In this document: one piece after another, positions 12,642-47,401 of the stretch
Position numbering within the stretch: position 1 is the stretch's first letter
Layout: every line of letters starts with the position of its first letter
From: an uncultured Planctomycetia bacterium
Lineage (GTDB): Bacteria; Omnitrophota; Gorgyraeia; VGKN01
Direction of reading: 5' to 3'
Assembly: GCA_964506845.1 (NCBI GenBank)
Contig: CAZDNS010000006.1
Coordinates: forward strand, 1-59,575
DNA length: 59,575 bases
Made by a program: the position numbers and the translations under genes
The notes under the pieces: generated by a model
Databases searched by the model: none
What the model was told of the DNA's origin: nothing
What the model saw: only the letters and a program-made list of their open reading frames with translations

Positions 12642-15377
12642 CTACTTCGCTCCTAACTGCGCCTTGTAGCCAGCCAACTGCTGGGAATAGGCTGCAGATA
12701 CGGCGGCTGCGGCAAGGACATAGGTGTTGGTACCGGGAAGTTGTTCAACAAGCTGTGATGCCGGAATACCCAGCGCTATACTGACCGCAACAGGTAAGAT
12801 ACCTAGATTCGCATTGCCTGTTTCCGGTTCATTCACCTGAAGTTTACGGATATCACCATATTGCTGCCAGTTAGTCAGATAATCACCTGTCCCTACTATT
12901 ACTATATCATTGTCGCTTTGTGATTCGACTGTAGTAAGGGCAGTGTTTCGTAACGCTTCTATATCTTTTGCATCGGTTACTATCTTGTAGCCTTCGCCTT
13001 CTTTGCTAAGACCGGTTAAACCAAGGAAACCGTCCATATCTTTTATCAAACTACCATCAATAATCACGCTGACTTTGCCGTTTGTACTTGCTATTAGATG
13101 TTCAAGATATGCCCTAAATCCCAGCGCCTCTCCTATCATATGAGGCTGAATGACAATGACTTTCCGTGCGTTATCTTGCGCCCTAGATAAGAGACTTGCA
13201 TTATAGTCATAGACGAGTAAGGAATCGCCTAACCAGGTTGCCAGTTTAGTGTTCATATCTTTTTCTAACTCTCCAAGCTCTAAATTTGTCAGCGAGGGTT
13301 TGTTTAACAGTTCATTATCTGCTAATTCCTTAAACTGTTCATCTGTTAATGCTCCGAGCCTTTCGTCAAACATATAAGTTGCAGCCTTATTACCACGGGC
13401 AGAACTGAACTGCCTGACTAATTTTGATGCTTGCAATACATTAATCTCCGCTCGCGTGGTGGTTTCTTTGGCTTTAGGTATATCTCCCAGCTCTTGTTGG
13501 GTCATTTTGAGTAAATCTTGAACTGTAAATGTAGTCTTATCTGGGAACGTTGCAAAATATTTCTTGATATGCCTAAGCCCTCTTGCCGGGGTACCTGCGC
13601 CACGTGCCAGGCGTGTGGTGGCAGGTTCTGGCAGTGCGGCGGCTACTGCAAAAAGTTGTGCAGTTTCAGGAATTATACCTGTAGGCCTTGTAGCCCTTTC
13701 TTCTTTAGGTTTATTCTTAACCAAGAAAGGCGAGTCCGGAGCCTGAAGGGCTCTAAGCAGTTTTGCCAACGGATAGGCTGCCTCTACTGTTCGCCAGTTA
13801 GTCCCATAAGGTTCAAATTGTCCTCCCAGGCAAGCCTTCTTAAATTCAAAATTAAATTTAAACATCCTCCGCCTGATTGAGCTATAATCTCTACTTCCAA
13901 AAATATCTTTAACGCCAGCTAATGCCTTACCATCATCGGATAGCGTGTATTGTAAGCCTACTAATATGGGATGGCTTTCCTTGTTGGCTACCGCATATTT
14001 AGCTGCCGTGGGAATAGCCGCCAGCCAGTGCGAGCCATTCATATCTCCCTGGATAATAAGGGGATTTATCCTTAAGAATTCATAGATATGGCTCATCAGT
14101 TTCATACTTCCCACCATAACAGGGTCATCCTTGCCGATATATTCTCCTCCTGCTAATATTCCCAATTTTGTAACCGAACTGCCTAACACCGGTTTATCTA
14201 AATAAACTTGCGGGTTCTCAATATCCCATCCTGCATTCTTTTTTCTCCATACCTGTTTGATATTAAAGCGGTCAGAATCAGCAAGATAAAGATAGACTGC
14301 ACTCTTATCTCTCTCGGCGTCAAGGAATATCCTTTTACTTGGAACATAGCCGGATTTCTTTAGCAATCTCGCCAAATTTTGACTATCACCATCTTTGCCG
14401 ACATAATCACCTGCCTTCATCTGTCGTAATGGCTTTAGGTATTCCTTAAGAAAACCATCTGCCCCATAGCAGTTTTTAACAAACTCTTGCTCAGCTGTAT
14501 CTTTTAATTGAGTTATGGCATCTGCTACATCAGCAAACAATTCCGGCAATTCTTCTATAGGAATATTACCATGTTCGTCAAATGCCTTTGCATCCCATAT
14601 CTCAAACACCAGGCCGTTTGCAAACTCACCTTTAGCTAATGCAGCATATACCCCTTCTCTTATCAGCCTGTTTAGGGCTGCGGGTCCCATTTTATCTCCG
14701 GCCAGTATGCCAAAAGTCCTCTCGCCGCCGGCTATATCAACTAAATAGCGGGCTGAGCCAATACCCTGTTGGGAGACATTCCCAGAAAAAGGATCAAGAA
14801 GGGCTGTTTCTTGTTTTGTACTTTGCCAATGCCTCCAGCCTTTTTCCATATTATCAACCATCTGCATATAGTCCTGAGGCATAACTTCTCTTAATATCTC
14901 AAAGAAGCGTCCGCTAAGCTGGGAATAAAAATAAGGATTGGCCATAGCTAGCTTTGCTTCTTTACCTGCAAAATCCTGACCGCGGCCATAAGGTTTCTTG
15001 GGCTTCTTAAATCCCTTTGCAGGGTCAAACTTACCGGTGTTGCCTACCATAGAGGCAAGATATCCTCGCGTAAATGCTAAGAACGATAATTGATGGCCCT
15101 GTGCGCTGTTGCGCGATTTATCTCCTAACATTAAAATATGGCTATCATCTCCGATACTTAAAGTTATTCCTCTTCTTAAGCGCTTTTGATCCTTTGCGCC
15201 AATAATATTACCGTCTGTAAGCATTTCTTTTTCTTTGGCTTCTAGAACCGTTGCCAAATCAATCGCTAACATATATTGCGGCGTAAAGTTATGCCCGAAC
15301 ATTCCTCCCATATCGGCTTTATCATCAGTAACTGACAATAACTCACCTGCGGCTACTCTTGCCTCTACCTCATCCAT
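12642..15377 (-). CDS. FBP aldolase/phosphatase (class V FBPase)-like module + Arg-rich/winged-helix linker + shared C-terminal domain; no leader of its own
   Basis: ORF track (911 aa). It lies in the same frame as the upstream 466-aa ORF, separated only by TAG plus 26 sense codons. No good SD sits at normal spacing before its ATG. Confidence 0.85.
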   Translation of the reverse strand: MDEVEARVAAGELLSVTDDKADMGGMFGHNFTPQYMLAIDLATVLEAKEKEMLTDGNIIGAKDQKRLRRGITLSIGDDSHILMLGDKSRNSAQGHQLSFLAFTRGYLASMVGNTGKFDPAKGFKKPKKPYGRGQDFAGKEAKLAMANPYFYSQLSGRFFEILREVMPQDYMQMVDNMEKGWRHWQSTKQETALLDPFSGNVSQQGIGSARYLVDIAGGERTFGILAGDKMGPAALNRLIREGVYAALAKGEFANGLVFEIWDAKAFDEHGNIPIEELPELFADVADAITQLKDTAEQEFVKNCYGADGFLKEYLKPLRQMKAGDYVGKDGDSQNLARLLKKSGYVPSKRIFLDAERDKSAVYLYLADSDRFNIKQVWRKKNAGWDIENPQVYLDKPVLGSSVTKLGILAGGEYIGKDDPVMVGSMKLMSHIYEFLRINPLIIQGDMNGSHWLAAIPTAAKYAVANKESHPILVGLQYTLSDDGKALAGVKDIFGSRDYSSIRRRMFKFNFEFKKACLGGQFEPYGTNWRTVEAAYPLAKLLRALQAPDSPFLVKNKPKEERATRPTGIIPETAQLFAVAAALPEPATTRLARGAGTPARGLRHIKKYFATFPDKTTFTVQDLLKMTQQELGDIPKAKETTTRAEINVLQASKLVRQFSSARGNKAATYMFDERLGALTDEQFKELADNELLNKPSLTNLELGELEKDMNTKLATWLGDSLLVYDYNASLLSRAQDNARKVIVIQPHMIGEALGFRAYLEHLIASTNGKVSVIIDGSLIKDMDGFLGLTGLSKEGEGYKIVTDAKDIEALRNTALTTVESQSDNDIVIVGTGDYLTNWQQYGDIRKLQVNEPETGNANLGILPVAVSIALGIPASQLVEQLPGTNTYVLAAAAVSAAYSQQLAGYKAQLGAK
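12645..13220 (-). other. Shared C-terminal domain (CTD), copy 2
   Basis: 'LVYDYNASLLSRAQDNARKVIVIQPHMIGEALGF..VSVIIDGS..GYKIVTDA..IVIVGTGDYLTNW..ANLGILPVAVSIALG..YSQQLAGYKAQLGAK-stop'. Confidence 0.85.
13278..13625 (-). other. Arg-rich segment + helical/winged-helix-like linker
   Basis: 'PATTRLARGAGTPARGLRHIKKYF' followed by 'FTVQDLLKMTQQELGDIPKAKETTTRAEINVLQASKLVRQF'. Same position (before the CTD) and same Arg-rich style as the linkers in the other megaproteins, but similarity is weaker. Confidence 0.4.
13743..15350 (-). other. FBP aldolase/phosphatase catalytic module with insertions
   Basis: 'DDKADMGGMFGH', 'SIGDDSHILMLGD', 'LLDPFSGNVSQQGIGS', 'GILAGDKMGPAA', 'LAGGEYIGKDDPVMVG', 'IQGDMNGSHW'. 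These are colinear with the motifs I recall from archaeal bifunctional FBP aldolase/phosphatases (KADIGS..GHH, VGDD, DSFSGNV, ADKTEPGA, GKYVGKDDPVM, GWMRGSH). Confidence 0.75.
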
Positions 15378-15381
15378 AAAC

Positions 15382-15456
15382 GGGTCAACCTGTGCCTCTT
15401 TGGGTGCTTGTCTAAAAAGAGGGCTTTGCGCCTTTCTTAAAGGGTCAACCTGTGCC
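15382..15456 (-). repeat. 15-nt direct repeat flanking the read-through spacer
   Basis: gggtcaacctgtgcc occurs at 15382-15396 and 15442-15456, exactly 60 nt apart. It encodes AQVDP twice in the read-through frame. Confidence 0.8.
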
Positions 15457-15458
15457 TA
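15456..15458 (-). other. Single in-frame TAG separating the 466-aa and 911-aa ORFs
   Basis: 15378-15455 is 78 nt (26 codons) with no further stop. It translates as AQVDPLRKAQSPLFRQAPKEAQVDPF, directly in frame with MDEVEARV... Confidence 0.9.
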
Positions 15459-16856
15459 TGCTGCAAATGGGGCAATATAAGGTTGGTCATGCTGATGAGT
15501 GATCATAACTTTTGCAAGGAAATCTGCCAATTCTCTCTCTGGGCCCAAAGCCGGAGGATTAATAGCTACGTGATCAATTACTTCTTCCTCTTCTCTAGGT
15601 ATGACTCCGCCTAATTCACTCTGCCAGCCATAGACCACAACATGAGCAATCCCTTCTTTAGGGGCTCTCCTTGCCTCTTTCAATGTTACCGGCTTTGTAA
15701 CCACATAACGTTCGCCGTTAGCACCGCCGGGAACAAAATTGACATCGTAAAACATACTGGCAACCCCACCCACAGCATCTGCTCCGCTCTGGCTTCTGCA
15801 TATGAATGTGGGGTTAAGCGTCCGTAAATTTCCTTCCTCTCCGTAGGCTGGTTGATAGACAACGCTCACTATCGGCTCAGTTGAAGTTATGGTACTGCCC
15901 TCTACAGTATAAATACCAGTAATAAGAAAATCATTGGGTTGGCTTGCAAGTGCCAGAAGCTCCAGACTCTCATCCTTAGAGGAATATTTTTTACCATCCG
16001 CGTCTTCAAAGGCTGAGGACACTTCAAATTCCCAGACAGGTCCGTCAAATTTTCCCTTTAAAACATCCTCGGTTTTTCTGACTATGGCTCTAAAACCACG
16101 GACACCCTTCTTGCCCTTAGGGGTAAACCCCAGTTTTTTCAGTGGCGTAGACCCGGGCATAAAAAACTCGTGATAGAGTTTAATATTGGCTGCTCCGATA
16201 CCGGCGCCCACCATTTTTGCCATAACCACAGGCTCAGAACCACGTTCGGTTATGGAATGTGCTTGGTATTTCACTCTAAGCACTTTGGCTAAATCAGTCA
16301 GACTCATAGAGGCTATTTCTATTTCCTCCTTTAGCAAGCCAAGTTCCTGGGCTTTTAAAACTCCCTCTCTCATTGCCTCAAGTATCAGTCTCTGCACCGT
16401 GGCATTTACTTCACCATACCTGTGGGTCACATGAATATCTATATCCGTGGCGCCAAAATCCTTTACTACGGCACCTAATAGCTTTCCATCGGATATATAT
16501 TCGTCTAATTTCTTCGTGATTGCTTTCACCACTGCATCGGGAATCTGCTCAACTGGTTTTGCCAATAACTCAGCTATTCTATATCCGTGAATATCATTGG
16601 TGAAAAATCCCTCTTTCTGTCCTTCCGGCTCTTTTAGTTCCGTTCTTATCCTGCTGTCTAAAACTAATCTTGCCAGTTCTGCTGTTTTTCCATTGGCCTG
16701 TTTTCCTAAAGTGAGTGGCGGTGCCAATTTACTCTTTTCCAAACCGCTGGTAGCGCTTGCATTTGCGGTGTCAAAAAAAGTGGGTGAAACTACTAAATTA
16801 AAAGACACCAAAACCGTAACCAGGATGTGCCAGAATTTTTTATACTCTTTACCCAT
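15456..16856 (-). CDS. Leader + divergent FBP aldolase/phosphatase-like module (Y-x-G-K-DDP motif absent); no CTD
   Basis: ORF track (466 aa), with AGGAGGGG 6 nt upstream of the ATG. Leader is MGKEYKKFWHILVTVLVSFNLVVSPTFFDTANASATSGLEKSKLAPPLTLGKQANG. The body aligns with FBPA/P: 'GATDIDIHVTHRYGEV', 'SEPVVMAKMVGAGIGAANIKLY', 'GFRAIVRK', 'LELLALASQP'. Where 'GKYVGKDDP' is expected it reads 'AYGEEGNLRTLNP'. Confidence 0.8.
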   Translation of the reverse strand: MGKEYKKFWHILVTVLVSFNLVVSPTFFDTANASATSGLEKSKLAPPLTLGKQANGKTAELARLVLDSRIRTELKEPEGQKEGFFTNDIHGYRIAELLAKPVEQIPDAVVKAITKKLDEYISDGKLLGAVVKDFGATDIDIHVTHRYGEVNATVQRLILEAMREGVLKAQELGLLKEEIEIASMSLTDLAKVLRVKYQAHSITERGSEPVVMAKMVGAGIGAANIKLYHEFFMPGSTPLKKLGFTPKGKKGVRGFRAIVRKTEDVLKGKFDGPVWEFEVSSAFEDADGKKYSSKDESLELLALASQPNDFLITGIYTVEGSTITSTEPIVSVVYQPAYGEEGNLRTLNPTFICRSQSGADAVGGVASMFYDVNFVPGGANGERYVVTKPVTLKEARRAPKEGIAHVVVYGWQSELGGVIPREEEEVIDHVAINPPALGPERELADFLAKVMITHQHDQPYIAPFAA

Positions 16857-16898
16857 TTTAAACCCCTCCTGTTTTTAAAAGGTTAAAAGTTAAACAAA

Positions 16899-16929: not shown

Positions 16930-17322
16930 TTAAAAGCTTTTGTAAAATTTCCAGAGAAGACGCCCTACTTCTTTACGTAAAGCCTGTAATGTTTCATAAT
17001 CCTTTTGTTTTAGATAGCCTAATCTTAAAGAGAAATCCAAAAGATATGTTACCTCTGCTAATGAACCCAAGGCAATAGATGAGAACTGTTTTATCTCACC
17101 CTTACTCTGTCTTCCTGAGCCTTCTACTAAATTTGTAGGAACTGATAATGCCGCTCTTCTCAATTGCGATGTAATGCCGTATAATTCGTCTTTTGGAAAA
17201 TCTTTAGTTGCAACATAAACTTTATAGGCTAAATCATCCGCCTTTTGCCACACGATTAATCTCTTATAGCCTTTTTCACTTGTGACTTTTGACTTAAGAC
17301 TTGCGTATCCTTTTTCTTCCAT
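16930..17322 (-). CDS. Four-helix-bundle protein (23S rRNA intervening-sequence protein family)
   Basis: 'YKRLIVWQKADDLAYKVYVATKDFPKDELYGITSQLRRAALSVPTNLVEGSGRQSKGEIKQFSSIALGSLAEVTYLLDFSLRLGYL' matches the characteristic pattern of this family. Confidence 0.85.
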   Translation of the reverse strand: MEEKGYASLKSKVTSEKGYKRLIVWQKADDLAYKVYVATKDFPKDELYGITSQLRRAALSVPTNLVEGSGRQSKGEIKQFSSIALGSLAEVTYLLDFSLRLGYLKQKDYETLQALRKEVGRLLWKFYKSF

Positions 17323-17397: not shown

Positions 17398-17799
17398 CTA
17401 AAACGGCATATCTACTTCAGTATGAAGCGCCTTGATTTTCGCAAGTTTTTCCCTCTCTACCTTTGCAATAAAATTATAGATTCGGCTTCTGGAGGGATTA
17501 TCTATATCCAGAAACTGGATGCCGCTTTCTATCTTATCTCGCTCATTTTGAACAGAGCCTCTCTCTATAAACGGCCTCTGCCACACATCCTTGCCTTTAA
17601 CCCTTAAGGGTAAAAATCTGCTATCAAAATTAAGTTCTATGTCTAAGGTATCGCCTGTGTTAATACCCTTATCGGATATAATCCTAATGCCTCCTGAGCT
17701 CATATCCACGCACTTTACAATAAATGCGGCCCCATTCTCATCCTGGCATCTAATATTGAACGAGTATCTGAAACGCCTGTATTTTCTATGTTCTCTCAT
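17398..17799 (-). CDS. PilZ-domain protein, paralog 1
   Basis: ORF track gives 17398..17817. The internal ATG 17799 gives MREHRKYRRFRY..., the same length (133 aa) as paralog 2. It carries the RxxxR ('RKYRR') and D-x-S-x-x-G ('DMSSGG') PilZ signatures. Confidence 0.8.
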   Translation of the reverse strand: MREHRKYRRFRYSFNIRCQDENGAAFIVKCVDMSSGGIRIISDKGINTGDTLDIELNFDSRFLPLRVKGKDVWQRPFIERGSVQNERDKIESGIQFLDIDNPSRSRIYNFIAKVEREKLAKIKALHTEVDMPF

Positions 17800-17895: not shown

Positions 17896-18165
17896 ATGGT
17901 TCTACAGATAAGACATAATTTCCAAATAACCCTGCCTGCTTCCATCCGTAAAAGGCTGGGCTTAAACATTGGAGACCTGCTGGAGACAGAAATCAAGGAT
18001 GGAAAGATTATCATTGTTCCTAAAAAGACTATAGATGCTGAGCAGGCCTGGTTTTGGACTAAGGAATGGCAAGAGCAAGAATTAGAGGCTGAGGCTGATA
18101 TTAAAGCCGGAAGAGTGAAGAAGTTTAAAAATGTAGAGGAATTAATCAGGGAATTGGATAAGTGA
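17896..18165 (+). CDS. AbrB/MazE/SpoVT-family antitoxin
   Basis: 'IRHNFQITLPASIRKRLGLNIGDLLETEIKDGKIIIVPKK' is a SpoVT-AbrB looped-hinge-helix pattern. It overlaps the downstream toxin gene by 4 nt. Confidence 0.85.
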   Translation: MVLQIRHNFQITLPASIRKRLGLNIGDLLETEIKDGKIIIVPKKTIDAEQAWFWTKEWQEQELEAEADIKAGRVKKFKNVEELIRELDK

Positions 18166-18422
18166 ATTTTATACTGACTTCGCACTTTAAAAAGGCCTAT
18201 AAGTCTCTGCCGCAAGAGGTTAAAAACCGTGTTAAAGAAACCCTGCGAACCTTCTCTACCAACCCTCGATATCCATCTCTGCATACAAAGAAAATCAAAA
18301 GCACTAAAAATATCTGGGAGATGCGCGTAAGTTCTGACTATAGAATTACCTTTCAGATGGTTAAAGATTATCTCATTCTTCGCAATGTTGGTCATCATGA
18401 GCCTACCTTAAAAAATCCGTAA
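18162..18422 (+). CDS. RelE/ParE-superfamily toxin
   Basis: 86 aa with a GTG start overlapping the antitoxin stop. 'FKKAYKSLPQEVKNRVKETLRTFSTNP..SLHTKKIKSTKNIWEMRVSSDYRITFQMVKDYLILRNVGHH' fits the RelE/YafQ-like pattern. Confidence 0.75.
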   Translation: MNFILTSHFKKAYKSLPQEVKNRVKETLRTFSTNPRYPSLHTKKIKSTKNIWEMRVSSDYRITFQMVKDYLILRNVGHHEPTLKNP

Positions 18423-18518: not shown

Positions 18519-21500
18519 CTACTTAGCTCCAAGCATTGCCCTGTATGAATTCAACTGGTCTGAATAACCTTGTGGAATATTTCCTGTTGGTATTAACGCG
18601 AAGGTTGTATCGCTAAGTTTTTTAACAAGCCCTTCTATTGGCGCATTTAAAGCTATGCTACGGACAGCAGGGAAAATACCTAAATTAGCCGTGTTTTCTG
18701 GAGCTTCATTTACCTGCAGGTTAAACAGATTTTCTCTCTCCAGTCTCCACCCATCTAAATATTCCTTAGTTCCAGCTCTAACTATCTTGTTATATTCTCC
18801 TGAACCCATAAGCTCTTCTATTCCCCTCTTGGTCTTTAACTGAACTTTTCCAGAAGAAACCAAATCTTTCAAACCTGCCAATTCTAAATAGCTATCTATT
18901 TCTCCCTCTTGTATTCCCTCTTTATCAACAACAACCGTTATTCCTTCATCGCTCGCTAACAAACTATTGATAGAAAGTTGCAAGCCAAGCGCCTGCGCCA
19001 GCATATGGGGCTGTAGAACGATAAGATTCCTAAATCCTTCTTTAGGTTTTTGAAAATTGGTGGCGTAATTAAACGTTAGCCAGTTATCAGTATTAATAAT
19101 GGTTTGGGCTCTATCCATAATAGAATTATAGTAAGCTGCGAATAATAGTAACGGGCCAAGCGGCGCTGGTGTGAGTGCTGCTGGCCACGTTGATAATATT
19201 GCTTCAAACTCACTCTTCGCATTACTTAAGACATTTATCACACCTTGAGGATTAGTATTAATAAGTTGCTCTGCCTTAAAAAGTTTCTGCATATGGTTTT
19301 CAAACTCCCAGCTTATATAAATAATGTTGGCTTCTTCGTTGTAAACGAGCGGTTCCTTTTGAGTCTTTGGACCCAAGAATATGTGGGCAGAGGTAATTGT
19401 CTCTGTTTCTGGTAATAGTTTAAGAAGAAGTTTCTGAATTTCTGAATTGGCAAACCAATCAGGCATAGTATCAACCTCTAAACCTCTCTGGTATTGAGCC
19501 TGCTTTCTATCAAGGATTTTATCTCTGTCAATTAAAGATGGGTCGTTTGTTCTCATTTTGGCAATATAAGCAGCTGTATTCGGCATATCTGGTTCTTCTG
19601 TGTCTCCTTTTGCTAATTCAAAGAACATCTTCGGATGCACCTCACCAATCGCATTGCTCAATATTGCACTTATTCTGGCATCAGCAGTTGATGGATAGGA
19701 TTTAATCCTTGCCTCGGTGCCGGATGGTCTGATTATCTCCCAGGTACCGTTACTAAATTCCATATAAACTGCATCCCCTGTAAAAAGATAACGTTGTAAA
19801 TCATCTATTTGTTTTAATAAATCCTCAAGTGCCTTATCATCAGTTACAGCCTTAATCTTTGCTACCATAACCTCATCCTTTACAAGGACTTCTTTTAGAA
19901 TCGCCTTCACATCATTTAATGTGATATTGCCACTTTCTAGGGCAAATGCTAAACTCAAAAAGAAGGCAAAATTGTTATCACGCCATTCAAAACCAACATC
20001 CAACATTTCTTTCCTTCTTTCAGGCGTAGCCTGCGCAGTAGCTAAGACATCCACAAGGTCTACATCTGTCCTGAGTTCTGCTGTATTTTGCATCTGTTTT
20101 TGTTCAATAATCTTTTGGAGCATATTGCTTAAAGATATATCTTGCAAGAATTCTGCATCTTGATATAGGCCTGTTTCATTTACACCGCGCTTTAAAGCAG
20201 CCTCCCTTGCTTTATTGAACCTTTTACTTATCATAATAAACGTAAGAACGCTTGCTTCAACAGCATTCTTTTCCCTCCAGCTTAAATACCTGCGCAAACC
20301 ATCTTCTGTAGTAAGTAGTTCTGTTGAGCCAACTACCATACCGCCCGATTCTTCTCCGGCGAACAATAACCGTGGATTATAGCCAAGCCTGATAGGATTT
20401 CCAAAAATATCGTGTATAACCACCATTCTTGGCTTAAGCCCAAGTTTATGCCTTACTTCATTTATCATAAGCTGTAATTCTACTTTCCGCATAATGGAGC
20501 CTATCTCTTTAAAACCAACTGGAACTTGAACCACAGGTATATCTTCACCATTAGATAATTCAAGCCATGCACTTGAAGAAACGGTTGTTTTTATTGAAAA
20601 AAATGTGGCTGCATTGGGATCTTCAATATTCTGGCTCCATTTTCCTTCTTCTTTAAGTTGTTCTATATAGGCATCCTGAATCTGAAGGAACGTCTGATTG
20701 GGCACATAAACCGCCAAAATCTTCTCATCTGAAAGAACTAAGTATGCTATATTTAAATGTTCTAATCTCTGCTTGGTTTCTTTATCATTTTTCTCCACCT
20801 GCATTAAAACAAATCTGTCTCCATCAGGGTCTGTGGTAGGGTATACAAAACCTATTGGCTGATTCAGCATAAAAACAGGTAATTTAGACGCTGCAACAAC
20901 CTGAAGTAAACTTACATCCTCGGAAATATCGGCCATTTTTGGTCTATAATAAGCAAGCAGATTGCTATTGGCAAGTTTTCGATAGGGCACGCCCAATCTT
21001 TTGAGTAGACCTTCCTCTTCTTTTGCATATATTTTAAATTTAATATTAACTACATCGTTTTCTTTGTCCTGTCTTGGTGTTTCGCCTATATTTGAAGCAA
21101 GCTCTCTTTCGGAAATTGTTGCCACTAACACGTAGGTTAAAGGAAGGTTTCCAAAGAATTCGTCAAGCCTTGTACTGATTTTTTCAACATATCTCTTTAC
21201 GAATTCATCTGGCGGCTGTTTCTGGTTAAAATCTGTCATACCCGTATCGCCAAAGAAAGAATCGGGTATTGTGCCTGTCCAGACTATTTTACCAACAGTC
21301 TCTCTATTAAAAACCTTCTCAAATACACCTCTAAAAAACTGGTAAGCAGAGCCCCTTGCTTGGTCAAATCCAATCTTCAAGCCATTAGCCAATGCCTCTT
21401 GGACGGCTTGTATATTTGAAGAAGTAACATATGAGCCCCTTAAATATTTTGCATATTTATCGCTCACGGGTATATTGTTAGCATCAACTGGACTTTCAAT

Positions 21501-24500
21501 ATCAAAATGAATATGCTCATCACTGCTGGATGCAAACTCTATAATTAAAGGCTTACCTGTTTCAAGAATATCATCTATCTTCCTGCCGATATTATCTGCA
21601 AGGGCTACCATATCTTCTATTAAAAGCTGTGCGCCCTCACTTCTCGCTCTTCTATAAGCCTTAACATCTATACCTAATTTCTCAAGATTTGCCTCAATAA
21701 AAGGAGAAATAGGCGGCCTCAAATTCCCCATCAATTTTGAAGCATAAATATTACGGGCAGAATGACTCGCTGTATCATACATTGTAAACATTATATTTAA
21801 TACAGTTGTAATAAAAGATGTGGCTCCTATGGGCAGATAGGTTCCTCGTGATGGGCTATGCACTATTATGCCTAATTTGGCAAATCTTCTGCGCAACATC
21901 TCGCTTACCAAAGGTGTGTTATATCTAACCTCACCACCTATTATTGTTTCTGTCATGGTTGCTTCTTGTTCGGCGGCAATTTTAAGTGCCGTCTCAGCCA
22001 ACTCATTGCCCAAAAGAAGTGTTAATAAAATATTCATAGGTGAATTTAGGTCAAAAGGAGCAAGTGGGTTTTGTGAATTTCTCATTCCGGCAACAGCAAT
22101 AGGCGCCATTGCTTTGACTACATCTGCCAGTCCTTTTTTGAGATTCCATTTTTCGGCAAGTTCTTTTGTAATCTCAAGTTTAAATGGGCCGCTGTTTGGG
22201 TCTTTCAGATGCTCAATAAGCGCTGCAAGTTCAGGATATTGCGTTCGCGCCTTTTCAGCCGCTTTTTCAAAACCTTTAAGAAATTCTATTTCAAGCTTTG
22301 CGCCAAAAATAAACCTCTGCATAAGCGGTGTGATTGAATATGCAGGTTCTTCATAAGTTAAACCATCTGCAATTTTTTTCTTCTCAGTTATAAGATTAGC
22401 TACAATCTGGCGAATCATCTCTCGCCTTGCAGCTGGCTCGCTGGCAGCAATTGAAATTCTCGTAACAGTTCCTATGTCAACATCTTCACTAACTAATTCA
22501 GCTTCAGAAACCTCAACAACTTTTTTGATTCCTTCTGATATGCCTGCCTGCTTATTCGGGTTTATTCGCATAAAAACCTGCGGCTTATCCTCCTGTTCAG
22601 GTCCCACAATCCAGAGCCCGTCGCTACAAACCATAAAACTCAGTTCACTGATTTTTATATAGGGTGGAAGGCTAACAGCTATCTGTTGAGCAAGCCCGTC
22701 AAAACCATCTTTAAATGTTTTCTCTAAGTATGGCAGTAAATCAACCAAGCGAATAGCAATCTCTGCGGCTTGTGGTAATTTTTGCCAAATCCCACCCATA
22801 GTTGACGGTTGGACAACTACCTTTCCCGGCGGGTCTTCATCGCCTTTAGCCATTGCCGTTATGTAGGAAGGTAATCCCCTCAAGTCTATTTTGGTTGAAA
22901 CTAACCTTTCAAAAGGAAGTTCGGGATTTTGTAATAAACCAAAAGCTTTTTGAAAATCAGGCGACTCTGCTCCATATGCACCACTAAGAAATAGCATTTT
23001 ATCATCAATCATAGCTCGTTCTTTGGTTTCATTCCTCCTTATCGAGTCTATATCTGCTCCAGCAAATATATCTCCTTTTCTTGTCCCGCCATAAAGATGA
23101 ATAACTCCATCATTAGTAATAAGTTGTGATGCCACTCTAAGGGTCTTGGGTGTAATCGCAGTAGGAACTACAATAACCACATCAAACTTTCCGCCATCCT
23201 CACCAAGATTTTCTTCTATACCTTCTTTGTTAAATAACTTGGTGCGACCATCAAATAATCCCTGTTTTCTTAAGAAGTCAAGCCGATTACTATCTATATC
23301 TAATGCAACTATCTCCTCTGCGCCAAGATTTTTGGCTAAAAGAAGATGCATTGTCCCAACGTTACCGGCACCAATAACAGCAACCCTTTTACCTCTTAAA
23401 TCACTAACTCCCATATGAGATAAAAGTTTATCTACGCTCCTGACAACACAAGCCAAGGGTTCTGACAATACAGCCTTTTCTAATGGGATTTCTTCGGGAA
23501 CAATATTAAGCGCCTCTTTCACTCTTGCGCCCCTTACGCTAAAATACTCTGCAAAGCCTGTGGTTCTATCTGGTGTAATATTTGGATTAAAGGTTATTCT
23601 GTCACCCACTTTAAATCCTGTATCCTTTCCAGCCGCAACTATCTCACCAACTAACTCATGGCCAAATAGTGGTCCTCTATCCTCTGGAATATCCCTTGAA
23701 CTCGTTACCTCTTTTACATCCGCCCTGCAAATTCCTGCCAGAGCAACCCTTACAATAACCTCGTCTTTTGCACATTTTGAAAGGTCTATTTGTTTTTCTT
23801 GGACCGTAACCACGCCGTTTTTCAATGCACAAAATTTACAATCAACCACAGAATCAGATCTACGACCTAATGAGTCTATCATATACTTTGTCAATCCCTC
23901 ACAAGCAGGGCCGTATTTGCCAAGAATTATAGTTATTCTATCCCTAAGACCAGCCAGGAAGGGATCATCATCTAGCGGTGTTTTTTCTGGAACCAATAAA
24001 CCTCTGGCTTTATCTGCATTGTTAATTTCTTCTGAAGAGGCATTGGCAATTCCACTTAACATCGCTACCAAACTTGACGGACTATCCTCGCCAACCAAGA
24101 TTTCCAACCCATCTATTTTCCTTCCTAATAATCCTTCTATCAAACCCCTATCAATTATCGCAGTAGTCACCACCCTCTTGTTAATACCTTCGATACCTGT
24201 ATCTAAAGCACCTGTTCCTGGTAATGATAAACCTAAATTAGTTAAAGCAATTCCTTTTTCTCTTTCTGTTTTCTTATAAAGGAACTGCAAGTATTCCTTC
24301 AAAGGTATTCGCAAATCATATTTTTCGTCACTAAGACTTAACTGAGGGATATTCGCTTCAGAATTTTGTTGATTAAAGTCACGGATTCTTCTATTTAACT
24401 CCTCAACAACCTGCTGTTTTTTTTGCCCTGCCAAGCTATTCAAAGCAGCATTACGACTATCAAACTCAAAGGTTACCTGAACTGGATGCCCCTGCTGATA

Positions 24501-44600: not shown

Positions 44601-45027
44601 TATCATCTGCAAGCTCTCCTACTGCCTTCATAATTACATATATCCGCCTGAAATCCCTGTTGATAGAACCAATAAGAACGGCTAATACATTATTTAAGTC
44701 CGTTTCCTTACCAGTTTTTAAAAGCTCTATAGCATCTTCAAGTTGTGCCTTAGCATGAGAGAAATCTCCTTTGTCTAAATACGCATCCATCTGCTGCCAG
44801 GTGATTGAACCTCCGATAGCGGGACCTGGCGCAGTGCTTAAAGTTTTTCTTGCGCCATTTCTTCTGCCCGCGCCCTGCTCACCTAACATAATAGGAGGTG
44901 CGAGCTTGTCTTTCTTTAAGGCAGTATTAGCATAGGCAGTATCAAAATAAGTGGGCGAGATTACTAAATTAAAAGAAACTAGAATTGTGATTACGGCTGA
45001 AAAAAATCTTTTATATCCTTTAAACAT
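38626..45027 (-). CDS. Leader-bearing PEP synthase / pyruvate-phosphate-dikinase-family megaprotein (2133 aa) with large insertions and a second, degenerate swivel + TIM-barrel unit; no CTD
   Basis: ORF track, with GAAGGGA 6 nt upstream of the ATG. Leader is MFKGYKRFFSAVITILVSFNLVISPTYFDTAYANTALKKDKLAPPIMLGEQGAGRRNG. Confidence 0.9.
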   Translation of the reverse strand: MFKGYKRFFSAVITILVSFNLVISPTYFDTAYANTALKKDKLAPPIMLGEQGAGRRNGARKTLSTAPGPAIGGSITWQQMDAYLDKGDFSHAKAQLEDAIELLKTGKETDLNNVLAVLIGSINRDFRRIYVIMKAVGELADDKQQALERYILSQPDLKNTPLAHRIVDCKALAEAIEKTKAGYLVQRADVPEELSTLDTVGGKVHNLFKMVRYFLTEIVAKRLLRMGLDKPPVPSVFGITGAGHNFFLRLNTVENESMLKKIREVIIDLDAQDAYEPSIAEGLISGWHQSATVPESLADELFAEFLLLAVQEGIITKDKIEKLMELKNSQEEIKVKDFFEGAKEGKILNEEEVTNLIGLLMAVRSSSYYEDRPIGAAAGLQDTYLNVTFEALFANVLKGFASLWKSMPIVYRDLLVFDEWLTQSIDKRDLQTVITILEKRYNSAYDRWVRENIADLVNKVEAKHNTTFEIWKTQQKETDGISEIDLKRRFVETLDRDLVINAFESDEANSNITWIEIKEGKTASTRDVILRLNKAIKDQGERKEQFVSTYRLLKILSLIEQEAPVEVSRLRKSLTDIRSRIVDPLNVGMGLGVQAMRQSKFCITGFTVKKASKMTGFSNNTLTITFDATYGLGPFLVEGKVEPDRLEVYIDLKTGKAVVNFKHRGKKERMMTKEHPEGIEVPQEMRERFCITESLYESDIEQKAIEIARWIVEIQGALGKTVDTECLYYEYKGRLRFNTVQMRAVAIPDLDKDDPKNLRLKRTIPDPEQIEHAKKFGEGVATSNAGAGRAIYIDEKSKRDVAEALTQSVGRKLQEGIAILKALLPGRYSEPFKDFENVKKALDKEWFTDEELKDIIWRYKRAKRIKEIELEKDFADLGDINKEDFEKILSFIGREDLVGVSASQIDRAIEELTLPDKVQNKEGFKRGLKNLLTELSLPVEGELSPEAKRQVSQDRQSLLLTIFIDIRTNIDISNHLFTSEVNVFVSEILSRQIDRFIEVVDLLKNAGETVGMLAADPKPEYDRAMMVASYVVTLTGSETSHATIFCGERGIPAVVGLVINPALLSEDKDILNKVKKSEIELTVDANQGRIYLGKYPIIEEIIFYSPTRWQHFKTKVGLILASVLDAERVSKLSLWAPKFIKELKKKLSGYYGFSLDRIEEALLAIGVDFRAGEAYDNLQILNNKEKILARLKELEGLEAELITAKEELEGALNIILDKTELGPSKIEINGEWLEVPREERREWIIANVEDLLDNEETIRNFAVSEGGEVVGPVEYTMGLLRGIKLHKNNRIREQLWELAILRANKKQLYLLENPQGPAEIARQKRMMADVEKLRPRKDIQAKIREKIAGYPTAEAYLRDKLKAHFIGLARTVTPEQLVLVRARDFKKNEIIKDLIGAELFYNEERASMVGDRGTGLEVRDENIYAVDIQLKAMNDAIKATKGTNVGTFGFFFVFLRSPEDLEKGLDRIAKLYEAGEIELPPYIGMMLELGNNVPLAADYARILANFARKYNVHTFFSYGTNDLTQSVKKADRDEKGFKKTKIYIPGTDKVSEISVFDEGDPEVIDAILHSALEAKRVIEEEFTDPKTGEALVDFTLGLCGNAIINLLRKPTPEARRAAMQIVAVLDSVGTSIPAFGQTVSLTADSHLETNYIDSKDVGPLTKIVTGKKLREEQKGAALRRVVFIKNNRDLTYLEKLPDGKKVEVPKIVEGDIVILGPDVDFTETDAKKESILAIQLSKASGIITSGVREDSPVMEWLRVNWRKPAILVDTAQDPFRALEDNRDYVVDFQRGFVYLEKSIKLYTEKIVDNTIFTPENIDYTAEPEKVNVKVVSMDDIFVELGLHPFAFAIYLYKTGQLSGLAKETFEEAYNDLRAFQKEKGIVIDEAVERDTVRAVEELLGRYEASSIQDFINKVVKEHIDAAVREATEKGELVVFETSQQEPDFFKGSTVGGQVLLKGLKFGDRYERSTTNSPLGFRGLIKNMSPGYNEVFIMFLRATKKSINEHGRDKVAIQLNMAHNPKILKSAIEFLEQAGFELGEGKDQIGFSISSIGNYIRIYDYLMEYAKKKIISFCRIDDEQLGQDHLMVDLLNMVELYDGKKIPLFSEEQMMRILKKPVAITKTAMKKMNMKLAI
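38743..39960 (-). other. Second, degenerate PEP-utilising unit (His-less swivel-like segment + partial TIM barrel)
   Basis: 'KASGIITSGVREDSPVMEWL' has no His where TSH is expected. 'FVELGLHPFAF', 'NSPLGFRGLI', 'IGFSISSIGN' and 'SFCRIDDEQLGQ' stand against the canonical F-S-I-G-[ST]-N-D-L-T-Q. Confidence 0.5.
40108..41700 (-). other. PEP-utilising enzyme TIM-barrel domain (with insertions)
   Basis: 'YGFSLDRIEEALLAIGV', 'MVGDRGTGLE', 'YIGMMLELG', 'TFFSYGTNDLTQS', 'TLGLCGNAI'. Confidence 0.7.
41848..42015 (-). other. Phosphohistidine swivel domain
   Basis: 'VVTLTGSETSHATIFCGERGIPAVVG'. Confidence 0.8.
42643..44505 (-). other. PPDK_N / ATP-grasp nucleotide-binding region (with insertions)
   Basis: 'LDTVGGKVHNLFKM', 'LMAVRSSSYYEDRPIGAAAGLQDTYLNV'. 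Confidence 0.7.
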
Positions 45028-45041
45028 TTCAAATCCCTTCT

Positions 45042-45074
45042 GTTTTTACCCTGTTAGAGATAGGAAACGCCTCA
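45042..45074 (-). promoter_or_regulatory. Conserved 33-nt upstream element, copy A (14 nt before the 2133-aa start)
   Basis: Minus strand TGAGGCGTTTCCTATCTCTAACAGGGTAAAAAC against TGAGGCATTTCGTATCTCTAACGGGGTAAAAAC at 47414-47446 (30 of 33 identical). Confidence 0.55.
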
Positions 45075-45222: not shown

Positions 45223-45251
45223 TTGACATATTCTTTCCAATCTGTTATATT
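45223..45251 (+). promoter_or_regulatory. Sigma70-type promoter of the MNT/HEPN cassette
   Basis: TTGACA (45223-45228), 17-nt spacer, TATATT (45246-45251). AAGGAG precedes ATG 45272. Confidence 0.6.
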
Positions 45252-45271: not shown

Positions 45272-45682
45272 ATGAAAAATCTTCAAATCAACAAACATAT
45301 ATTCAAAAAGTTCAATGTAAAACTTGCCTATCTTTTCGGCTCACACGCAAAGGGTAATGCCGCCAAAGAAAGCGATTTTGATATTGCCGTGTTATTCGAA
45401 AAAGATGGCGGCCGCACAGATTATTTTGATAAAGCCATATACCTTGCGGAAGAATTAAGGGATTATTTCCCAGCCGAAATTGATATAGTGGCGTTAAACC
45501 AAGCAAGTAGTCTTCTGAAATATGAAGTGGTTGCCCACGGAAAACCCATTTACTGCGAAGATGAAGCTGAGCGAATAGACTTTGAAGTTGCCGTGACAAA
45601 AGAGTATATAGATGAACAATATGTGCGAGAGATTTATTACAATGCTTTGAAGGAACGAGTAGAAAAAGGGGTGTATAAATGA
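45272..45682 (+). CDS. Minimal nucleotidyltransferase (MNT/MntA-type antitoxin)
   Basis: 'LAYLFGSHAKGNAAKESDFDIAVLF' carries the GS-x(n)-DxD nucleotidyltransferase signature. It overlaps the HEPN gene by 4 nt. Confidence 0.85.
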   Translation: MKNLQINKHIFKKFNVKLAYLFGSHAKGNAAKESDFDIAVLFEKDGGRTDYFDKAIYLAEELRDYFPAEIDIVALNQASSLLKYEVVAHGKPIYCEDEAERIDFEVAVTKEYIDEQYVREIYYNALKERVEKGVYK

Positions 45683-46095
45683 CAAATCCCAGTATTATAA
45701 AAGAGCGGCTACAAGAAATAGATGAGAATTTAAAGATTCTATCAAAATTAAAACAATTGAGTAAAGAAAAATTTACGGCTAACCCTGAAATCTTTAAACT
45801 TGCTGAGCGTTGTTTAGAAATCAACATACAGGCACTCCTTGATATTTGTCATCATATAATTGCCGCCAACAACCTGATAAGGCCTCGCGACAACAAAGAT
45901 GTGTTTGAAATTATAGCTGCACAAAAAATAATCCCTCGCAATTTTGCCAAGCGCATCGAACCAATGGTGGGTCTGCGCAACATCCTTGTTCATGAATACA
46001 TTAAAATTAACCCTAAACAGATCTACCAACATCTCAAGCGCCTTGAAGACTTCCGCACCTTCCAAAAACATATTATCGCCTTCCTTAAAAAATAG
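45679..46095 (+). CDS. HEPN/DUF86 (HepT-type toxin)
   Basis: 'MVGLRNILVHEYIKI' carries the R-x4-H HEPN motif. It has the typical size and is paired with the MNT gene. Confidence 0.85.
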   Translation: MTNPSIIKERLQEIDENLKILSKLKQLSKEKFTANPEIFKLAERCLEINIQALLDICHHIIAANNLIRPRDNKDVFEIIAAQKIIPRNFAKRIEPMVGLRNILVHEYIKINPKQIYQHLKRLEDFRTFQKHIIAFLKK

Positions 46096-46125
46096 ATAAA
46101 AATAGGGCCAGACCCTTTTTATTTT

Positions 46126-46723
46126 CTATTGTAATCTCTCTAATTCCCAATTCCTGAATTCCATATCCAACAACCCCGTGCGGTTAAATAGAAGCGTCCC
46201 CTTTTTCCTTGTTTTAAGTGCTTCTATTTCCTCTGCGCTTGCCATTCTAAGTTTGCCAGAACTAACTAAATTGGCTAAGCCCGACTGCTTTAAGAAACCC
46301 TCTGTTTTTCCTTGCTCTATTCCTCTTTCATCAATAGAAAATCTGATACCCTTGGTTTCTGATAACCAGTGAAAAACCTAACTCATCTAACTCTCTATTT
46401 TGCTCTTTTAAAAGAATAATACCCTGTCTAATTTGCTCTGCTATTTGCTGCAAATCTGTTGTTGTCCTAACCACTTTTTCCGCCAGTTCTATCATTACCG
46501 CAGCACCCAGCGCACGTCTGGCTGCATTTAATTTTCCATCAGCACCATTTCTACGGCTACTATGCGCAGAGGTCATAGGAGGCGCAAGGCGAGATTTTTT
46601 CTTCTGGTTTAAGGAATAGGCAAAGACGGGGTCTATAAGGGATGTGGCGATAAAAACCTCGGCAACAATTAGCGCTATTAGCTTTTTAAAATAATTTCCA
46701 ATGTTATTACTTTCGGGCAACAT
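46126..46723 (-). pseudogene. Cargo-less family member: leader fused almost directly to the CTD, frameshifted and 3'-truncated next to the HEPN gene
   Basis: Frame A (track ORF 46331..46723) gives a leader, MLPESNNIGNYFKKLIALIVAEVFIATSLIDPVFAYSLNQKKKSRLAPPMTSAHSSRRNG, then 'GIILLKEQNRELDELGFSL', which aligns with CTD 'NLIVLQPHMLAQALGLQL'. Frame B (46377-46129) gives 'HWLSETKGIRFSIDERGIEQGKTEGFLKQSGLANLVSSGKLRMASAEEIEALKTRKKGTLLFNRTGLLDMEF', which aligns with CTD 'SLLASDEGITVVVDKEGIQEGEIDSYLELAGLKDLVSSGKVQLKTKRGIEEL..YLDGW'. The last ~75 CTD residues are missing. Confidence 0.65.
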
Positions 46724-46732
46724 AAAAAGCTC

Positions 46733-46921
46733 CTAATTCTTGGAAGAATAAACTAATTTAGTATCTCTTTTATTCACACCTGAAGGGATATTGCTCGTAT
46801 TCCAGATTTTTAACATCTCCTCTATCGAAGCAGTTAAAAGACGTATAGTCTCCTCATTCCTTTTTGATAAGGCTTGTATAACTATATCTCTGGGTTTAAG
46901 TTCAGATTTCTTGTCTTCCAT
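46733..46921 (-). CDS. Small hypothetical protein (62 aa)
   Basis: ORF track only, with no recognisable motif. It occupies the slot between PilZ-2 and a leader gene that the four-helix-bundle gene occupies after PilZ-1. Confidence 0.35.
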   Translation of the reverse strand: MEDKKSELKPRDIVIQALSKRNEETIRLLTASIEEMLKIWNTSNIPSGVNKRDTKLVYSSKN

Positions 46922-46999
46922 TTTTCACCATAATTGTAATGTATAATTACTTTGGTAGCGCTACCGTTGTAGTGTAAAAAAGTTTGTTAAATCACAAAA

Positions 47000-47401
47000 T
47001 TAAAACGGCATATCGATTTCGGCATGAAGCTCTCTCATTTTTTCCAGTTTTTCTCTCTCGACATTTGTAATAAAGTTATAGATTCTGCTTCTGGAATGAT
47101 TATCTATGTCCAGAAACTGGATGCCGCTTTCTATCTTATCTTGTCCATTTTGAATAGAACCTCTGTCTATAAACGGCCTCTGCCACACATCCTTGCCTTT
47201 AACCTTCAGGGGTAAAAATCTGCTATCAAAATTAAGTTCTATGTCTAAGGTATCGCCTGTGTTAATATTCTTATCGGATATAATCCTAACGCCTCCGGAG
47301 CTCATATCCACACACCTTGCAGTAAATATGGTTTTATCCCCGTTTTGACATTTAATATCAAAAGAGTATCTGAAGCGTCTGTATTTTCTATGTTCTCTCA
47401 T
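47000..47401 (-). CDS. PilZ-domain protein, paralog 2
   Basis: 133 aa, with 106 of 133 residues identical to paralog 1 by manual alignment. It has the 'RKYRR' and 'DMSSGG' motifs. Confidence 0.8.
   Translation of the reverse strand: MREHRKYRRFRYSFDIKCQNGDKTIFTARCVDMSSGGVRIISDKNINTGDTLDIELNFDSRFLPLKVKGKDVWQRPFIDRGSIQNGQDKIESGIQFLDIDNHSRSRIYNFITNVEREKLEKMRELHAEIDMPF

Follow-up and report, generated by a model that had tools for sequence, protein, structure and literature searches.

Our study indicates that a broken gene on the minus strand of the window, here called J (46126–46723), is probably a recently disabled, cargo-less paralogue of the giant gene H, whose product is 6,681 aa long. The window is the whole of contig C6 (59,575 nt) of a genome of 2.05 Mb, 140 contigs and 40 % GC. 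It holds an array of seven co-oriented minus-strand genes or gene remnants that have an N-terminal leader in common, and a C-terminal domain (CTD) of ~199 residues is common to B, D/C, H and the remnant J. In the proposed course of events, J would have consisted of an H-type leader, a linker of ~35–50 residues and an H-type, Rossmann-like CTD, and this CTD appears to have been disabled twice, by a +1 frame break in the overlap of two reading frames (J1 and J2) and by the loss of its last ~70 residues. Ordinary translation would reach only the first 130 codons and yield a predicted leader and helical stub. The features of the locus are collected in Table 1.

Table 1. Features of locus J and of the adjoining toxin–antitoxin (TA) cassette, in window positions
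Feature	Position	Strand	Remarks
J1	46331–46723	minus	130-codon ORF, stop TGA 46331–46333; leader and short helical linker, then possible CTD start
Shine-Dalgarno AGGAG of J1	46730–46734	minus	J1 ATG follows after 6 nt; overlap with the stop of the upstream 62-aa ORF; direct sequence reading
J1 leader core (residues 11–66)	46526–46693	minus	Hydrophobic segment, LAPP (46577–46588), RRNG (46544–46555); motif scan
J1/J2 frame overlap	46331–46377	minus	+1 frame break inside; T5 run 46372–46376; sequence AGAAACCAAGGG
J2	46129–46377	minus	83 stop-free codons in the +1 frame; H-type CTD fragment, significant match 46204–46365
Premature stop TAG of J2	46126–46128	minus	CTD ends at position ~128 of 199
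Terminator-like hairpin	46094–46116	minus	AGGGTCTGGCCCT and T-tract; within the 30-nt gap between the J and HepT stops
Conserved 62-aa ORF	46733–46921	minus	Directly upstream of J; homologues adjoin leader genes in G001 and G002
PilZ-2	47000–47401	minus	Heads the unit of J; PilZ-1 (17399–17799) is a duplicate, 86 % nucleotide identity
HepT-like (HEPN) toxin gene	45679–46095	plus	Convergent with J; Rx4H motif (RNILVH); Pfam PF01934, E 3e-27
MNT nucleotidyltransferase antitoxin gene	45272–45682	plus	4-nt overlap with HepT; GSx10DxD (GSx10DFD); PF18765 (E 1e-22), PF01909
TA-pair promoter	45223–45251	plus	Near-consensus sigma-70-like, TTGACA-17-TATATT with TG

The preliminary description of this locus, made from the sequence without database searches, had assigned a full family leader to the 130-aa ORF, and this was borne out. 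Residues 11–66 of J1 align with residues 76–132 of H at 58 % identity (E 1e-15), compared to 28–38 % for the remaining leaders of the family, and J1 possesses both the hydrophobic segment and the K/R-L-A-P-P motif by which leaders are recognized. With a leader HMM that excluded J, J1 reached 43 bits (E 6e-11) among ~41,000 pieces from a six-frame translation of the genome. The second frame had been described as a continuation of the CTD, and residues 5–54 of J2 do match residues 6536–6585 of the H CTD at 38 % identity (E 1e-8). Similarity under a CTD HMM, the lack of which had been named as a reason to abandon the assignment, was significant at 24 bits (E 2e-6 over all window frames); an HMM of 11 CTD sequences gave J2 18 bits. 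J2 and H are set apart from the other CTDs by an LVSSGK motif, a one-residue deletion after a conserved glycine and a 7-residue deletion, and the H-type leader and the H-type CTD are known only from these two genes.

The end of J1, ‘GIILLKEQNRELDELGFSL’, had been aligned with the start of the CTD. It stands in the correct register with the family ‘LGF’ motif and is plausibly the CTD start in frame 1, although it scores −0.1 bits and many shuffled sequences score higher. As this segment is statistically unsupported, the break is possibly more than a simple frameshift. The leader is joined almost directly to the CTD, as had been described, with ~35–50 residues between the modules that have no Pfam match and include no enzyme or other cargo. 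That the similarities arose by chance, or that J is a chimera of assembly, is effectively refuted: the shortness of the matches is all that speaks for it, whereas both ends of J independently pick H as the best match (E 1e-15 and 1e-8), the HMM E-values are 6e-11 and about 1e-7, and the identical sequence occurs in two further assemblies.

These are the Logan assemblies of SRR4343426 and SRR4343439, in both of which the exact 130-aa J1 product was called. Their contigs are 100 % identical to the window over 47138–41349 and 47138–45509, respectively, and each includes the frame overlap and the premature stop as well as HepT and part of MNT. Because two independent public assemblies agree completely with the window, an assembly error is excluded for the frame break, and the earlier account of J as frameshifted and truncated holds. 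J is disrupted and truncated relative to its homologues in a reproducible manner, as is expected of a pseudogene. The PilZ repeat (86 % DNA identity) is the probable reason why both Logan contigs end at 47138, inside PilZ-2.

No single frame of J runs from leader to CTD, and one +1 switch within the J1/J2 overlap is needed to connect them. Frame 1 hits TGA TGA right after the overlap; the J2 frame is stop-rich upstream of the overlap, and its 5′ end is without a usable start codon. The overlap contains the T5 run and an A-rich run, and a +1 slip at T5 would join the two frames. The helix that follows strand 1 is 2–5 residues shorter in J than in the 11 other CTDs, by the position of the join. 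A single ‘14-nt deletion’ was considered as the lesion and dropped, as the gap is either 2 or 5 residues depending on the join, and this variation prevents the exact lesion from being placed.

The CTD of J is present from position ~47 to ~128, with similarity that is significant only to position ~102 (profile 51–102) and can be traced by eye to W123 (‘NWELER’ versus ‘GWRLER’). Positions ~129–199 are missing, and with them strand 5, the ANLGILP motif and the C-terminal helix; J does not possess the complete domain of ~199 residues ending in ...Y(K/R)AxLGAK. This loss of ~70 residues agrees with the ~75 reported earlier. The missing 3′ end of the CTD was absent from every frame of the window and of the genome, including beyond the TA cassette. 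An AlphaFold model of the CTD (pLDDT 80.5, pTM 0.81) has alternating strands and helices in a Rossmann-like arrangement, and a fold search of the PDB with this model gave no match at E ≤0.001, the best listed TM-score being 0.41, for generic Rossmann-like folds only. Set against the model, J is without strand 5 (residues 130–134), the next helix, a hairpin and the long C-terminal helix, and the remaining piece, if the model is correct, could not form the native domain.

These data bear on whether J might be a working minimal member of the family, in which a +1 slip on GGT-TTT-TCA would give a leader with a short CTD of ~198 aa, or in which the break is a sequencing artefact shared by the assemblies. 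Such a reading, which we consider very unlikely, would explain why a T5 run lies inside the frame overlap, why the 83 codons of J2 are stop-free (a chance of ~5e-4 in random sequence of the same composition) and why a terminator-like hairpin follows the stop in the manner of a normal gene end; AGGGTCTGGCCCT lies 9 nt after the J2 stop and pairs better on the J strand. However, three assemblies are identical, and Illumina sequencing rarely errs at a T5 run. The product would still end ~70 residues early, deprived of a core strand and of the CTD motifs that are best conserved, and no other member has a helix as short, the difference being 2–5 residues. In prfB-type +1 frameshifting the stimulator is, for example, an A-site codon that is rare or a stop; no known +1 stimulator was recognized in J, and no homologue was found that could show a conserved slip site.

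The age of the damage was judged from the open state of J2, which is open over exactly its homologous length. In the neighbouring genes, off-frame stops have a frequency of 0.09 per codon, and 78 codons was the longest open stretch in 1993 segments. Under neutral substitution, a stop in J2 is estimated to be 50 % likely by 0.044 and 95 % likely by 0.19 substitutions per site, whereas 31 % of leader nucleotides differ between J and H. That J2 is stop-free despite this divergence points to recent lesions, and we infer that J was under selection for most of the time since its split from H. Either the lesions are recent or the J2 frame is still read, and the latter is unlikely. J resembles ordinary bacterial pseudogenes in its single frame break, its premature end, the lack of an intact orthologue and the presence of a neighbouring family gene broken by a nonsense codon. 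It differs from them in that both pieces are still stop-free and the translation signals of J1 are kept, so that decay would be very recent or incomplete.

Those translation signals also allow for the 130-aa J1 on its own being the selected product, with the CTD fragment as dead DNA; such a protein might occupy or regulate the machinery that recognizes leaders. J1 is an intact ORF of 130 codons with a strong Shine-Dalgarno sequence and tight, probably translational, coupling to the conserved 62-aa ORF upstream; it keeps the full leader motifs, and it was called as a gene in independent assemblies. However, no homologues of that length were found, and a very recent pseudogene would give the same pattern. 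We regard a function for J1 alone as improbable, and J as most likely a dead remnant. The 62-aa ORF, which gene callers missed in the window, is of a type (motif ...ETIxLL...M..WN) that is without Pfam match and adjoins leader-bearing genes in three genera. Besides the window copy there are copies in G001 (L028, 184–450) and, as a tandem pair, in G002 (L026, 4320–4655 and 4685–4864). The 78-nt spacer between PilZ-2 and this small ORF holds a 12-nt perfect palindrome, GGTAGCGCTACC (46954–46965), for which an operator or a hairpin is possible.

Downstream, J converges on an MNT/HepT pair, and the distance from the J stop to the HepT stop (46093–46095) was measured at 30 nt, as the preliminary description had stated. 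On its two Pfam domains, operon arrangement and catalytic motifs, the pair is genuine. It is also typical of MNT/HepT pairs in its Pfam domains, 4-nt overlap, motifs, own promoter and patchy distribution; nothing about it is unusual, and its only link to J is adjacency and convergence. HepT is absent from the three other genomes of the host’s family (G001, G002 and G003, of sister genera). Across the class it is carried by 10 of 61 genomes, the highest identity being 60 %, to a homologue in another family, and this patchiness indicates that the cassette was acquired in the lineage of the window. The identical HepT protein was found in no other context, only in the two Logan contigs.

The loss of the CTD end had been attributed to insertion of this cassette. 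The lineage-specific occurrence of HepT agrees with that, as does the G002 interval between the small ORFs and the I-like gene, which contains neither J nor the TA pair. However, the comparison of synteny supplied no empty site, and neither flanking repeats nor a leftover 3′ end of the CTD was found; direct and inverted repeats around the cassette were limited to short, chance-like matches. The MNT/HepT cassette may have truncated the CTD on its arrival, a tentative proposal that we rate slightly below an even chance. A second TA pair, of a MazE-type antitoxin and a ParE-like toxin (17896–18422, plus strand), is convergent with H and ends 96 nt from the H stop. As the CTD of H is intact, adjacency to a TA pair does not imply damage. 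Both genes with an H-type CTD, H and J, have a TA cassette at the 3′ end.

The genes upstream of J, from a 532-aa gene outwards, are conserved in G001, G002 and G003. In the window, the 532-aa gene is followed by PilZ-2, the small ORF, J, MNT/HepT and gene I. In G002 it is followed by a leader-cargo-CTD gene of 1164 aa, two small ORFs and an I-like gene, in G003 by a leader-cargo-CTD gene of at least 889 aa, and in G001 by a small ORF and the contig end. The cargoes in this slot in G002 and G003 have no Pfam domains and no homologue in the genome of the window, and they are not mutually homologous. Judged from gene order, the slot after the 532-aa gene is variable. The G002 and G003 genes in the matching slot were rejected as orthologues of J, as they are unrelated and cargo-bearing, and contig C102 of G001 was rejected as a J locus because it ends 183 nt after the small ORF, with no leader-type ORF readable there.

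The preliminary description had advised a search of related genomes for intact genes made of leader and CTD only, and none was found among the 61 searched. The CTD occurs in 4 of these, all of the host’s own family, and apart from J, all copies either sit in open frames of 898 aa or more or are interrupted by the end of a contig. Among 1.84 billion representative proteins, the CTD profile detected eight, seven of 889–2459 aa and one leaderless call of 364 aa. A read-through version of J, searched by words against 5.8 billion protein clusters, retrieved only J1 itself; JGI metagenome contigs searched with the same query and 185,579 GTDB species genomes searched with an alignment of H and J gave no match. 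An intact gene of leader and CTD only was thus not found in large public protein, metagenome and genome searches. Three candidates were set aside: the leaderless 364-aa call (P0005) is identical to an internal part of a G002 frame of at least 1036 aa, a 53-aa CTD match on G003 contig C16 belongs to a gene cut by the contig end and is not a second remnant, and G001 C216 is an unrelated membrane protein with a leader, not an orthologue of J.

Comparison with the full-length genes revealed modularity among the giant proteins. Residues 5268–6494 of H (window 19080–22760) form a block of ~1,200 residues that is 85–88 % identical to G001:C204:5312–8824. The G001 protein that bears this block, a 3243-aa open frame, has an I/D-type leader, 65 % identical to that of gene I, and a C-terminal module of wHTH and B/C-type CTD, the CTD being 30 % identical to that of H. 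The orthologous pair formed by D/C and a 1407-aa G001 C204 protein is colinear, at 78 % identity overall, 73 % in the leader and 75–79 % in the CTD. A near-identical block between different ends indicates a replacement of the ends, either in H or in its G001 counterpart. As read from these alignments, the giant genes are mosaics, in which ends and cargo blocks are exchangeable and have separate histories. The direction of exchange is not settable, as G002 and G003 have no orthologue of the H block.

J had been taken as evidence that leader and CTD are the modules that define the family and that the enzymes are inserted cargo. This conclusion goes too far. Gene I (2133 aa) and a 2666-aa gene on contig C3 have the leader but no CTD, so that ‘leader plus CTD’ is not the definition of one family, and a deletion derivative of a large gene would look like J. 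The broader idea of modularity is partly supported by the H block lying between other ends in G001, although that comparison does not give the direction of exchange, and J alone does not demonstrate that the enzymes were inserted. In G001:C216 (L032, 5807–12259), the same leader type (…LIALVVAEVFLFTS…RLVPP…) is found on a 2150-aa polytopic membrane protein that is unrelated to the enzyme fusions; leader use therefore extends well beyond the CTD-bearing genes.

As to its origin, J could have arisen by duplication of H and deletion of the interior, or it could be left over from the frame that H was built on. A wHTH segment ahead of the CTD was considered as a sign of internal deletion and dropped, as B and H are themselves without it. 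The second possibility is the strong form of the idea in the preliminary description; we consider it improbable, and it overlaps with our main reading in that it bears on the origin of J and not on its present state. It would mean that J never had cargo and is the surviving ‘empty frame’ of leader and CTD into which enzyme blocks recombined. It draws on the H-type leader and H-type CTD being shared by H and J alone, on the 85–88 % identity of the H cargo block to a G001 protein with a different leader and CTD while a true orthologous pair (D/C and G001 C204) keeps its CTD at 75–79 %, and on the unrelated cargoes that lie between leader and CTD in the matching slot of G002 and G003. However, polarity is not settable where G002 and G003 have no orthologue of the block, an internal deletion in an H duplicate gives the same structure, and no intact empty frame was found in public data. 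That J is the last such frame, that matched leaders and CTDs act as homologous handles for moving enzyme blocks, and that H was built on a frame of the J type seems doubtful to us. If a handle system of this kind were real, the locus would record how Omnitrophota assemble their multi-enzyme megaproteins.

Seen as a recently disabled paralogue of H, J is in itself small and broken. It is useful as a marker of giant-gene evolution, having the two ends of H with nothing between them. The separate histories of ends and blocks offer a testable handle on the assembly and dismantling of enzyme strings of 2,000–6,700 residues. The array is also in flux, with damage in two of the seven family genes and two TA cassettes that have landed at gene ends. 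The other damaged gene is D/C, in which an in-frame TAG (15456–15458, minus) between ORFs 15456–16856 and 12642–15377 splits one gene into D, a leader-FBPase ORF, and C, which bears the CTD. In G001 the orthologue (C204, 1407 aa) runs without interruption, at 78 % identity over 1404 aa, and another relative, P0004, has Glu at the TAG position. The 466-aa product of D is also present in the Logan assembly of SRR4343426.

Giant proteins of Omnitrophota have been described in two preprints (West-Roberts et al. 2023, bioRxiv 10.1101/2023.11.21.568195; bioRxiv 10.64898/2026.06.07.730766), and in the text of these that was searched, both describe membrane-type N-termini and PilZ genes nearby (for PilZ, West-Roberts et al., bioRxiv 10.1101/2023.11.21.568195). 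J is like the giant genes of West-Roberts et al., as far as the searched text describes them, in having a PilZ gene nearby. The searched text of both preprints makes no mention of the leader/CTD pair, of a pseudogene or of a frameshift. The leader-CTD megaprotein family is lineage-specific and uncatalogued. Compared to its leader-cargo-CTD members (B, D/C and H; G001 C204/C52; G002 C5/C260), J has the same leader, a CTD of the H subtype and the same strand and array, but it has no cargo, its frame is broken and its CTD is without the last third.

A further parallel is offered by polymorphic toxin loci of the Rhs and CDI types, where orphan modules are kept beside full-length genes. By analogy, J would be a truncated paralogous fragment beside full-length genes, with ends that may serve as recombination handles. 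Unlike those loci, J has no toxin or immunity content, it keeps both end modules and is missing the middle, and recombination of J was not observed.

Two further observations concern the region around PilZ-1 and D. The leader regions of I and D have a DNA identity of 74 % (44930–45048 versus 16759–16877), which, as a comparison of sequences, suggests segmental duplication of a unit of PilZ and leader gene. The 130-aa gene that lies between PilZ-1 and D (16930–17322, minus) encodes a four-helix-bundle protein, which belongs to the 23S rRNA-intervening-sequence family (PF05635). The same product has a weaker bAvd-like match that falls below the Pfam cut-off; bAvd is an accessory protein of diversity-generating retroelements.
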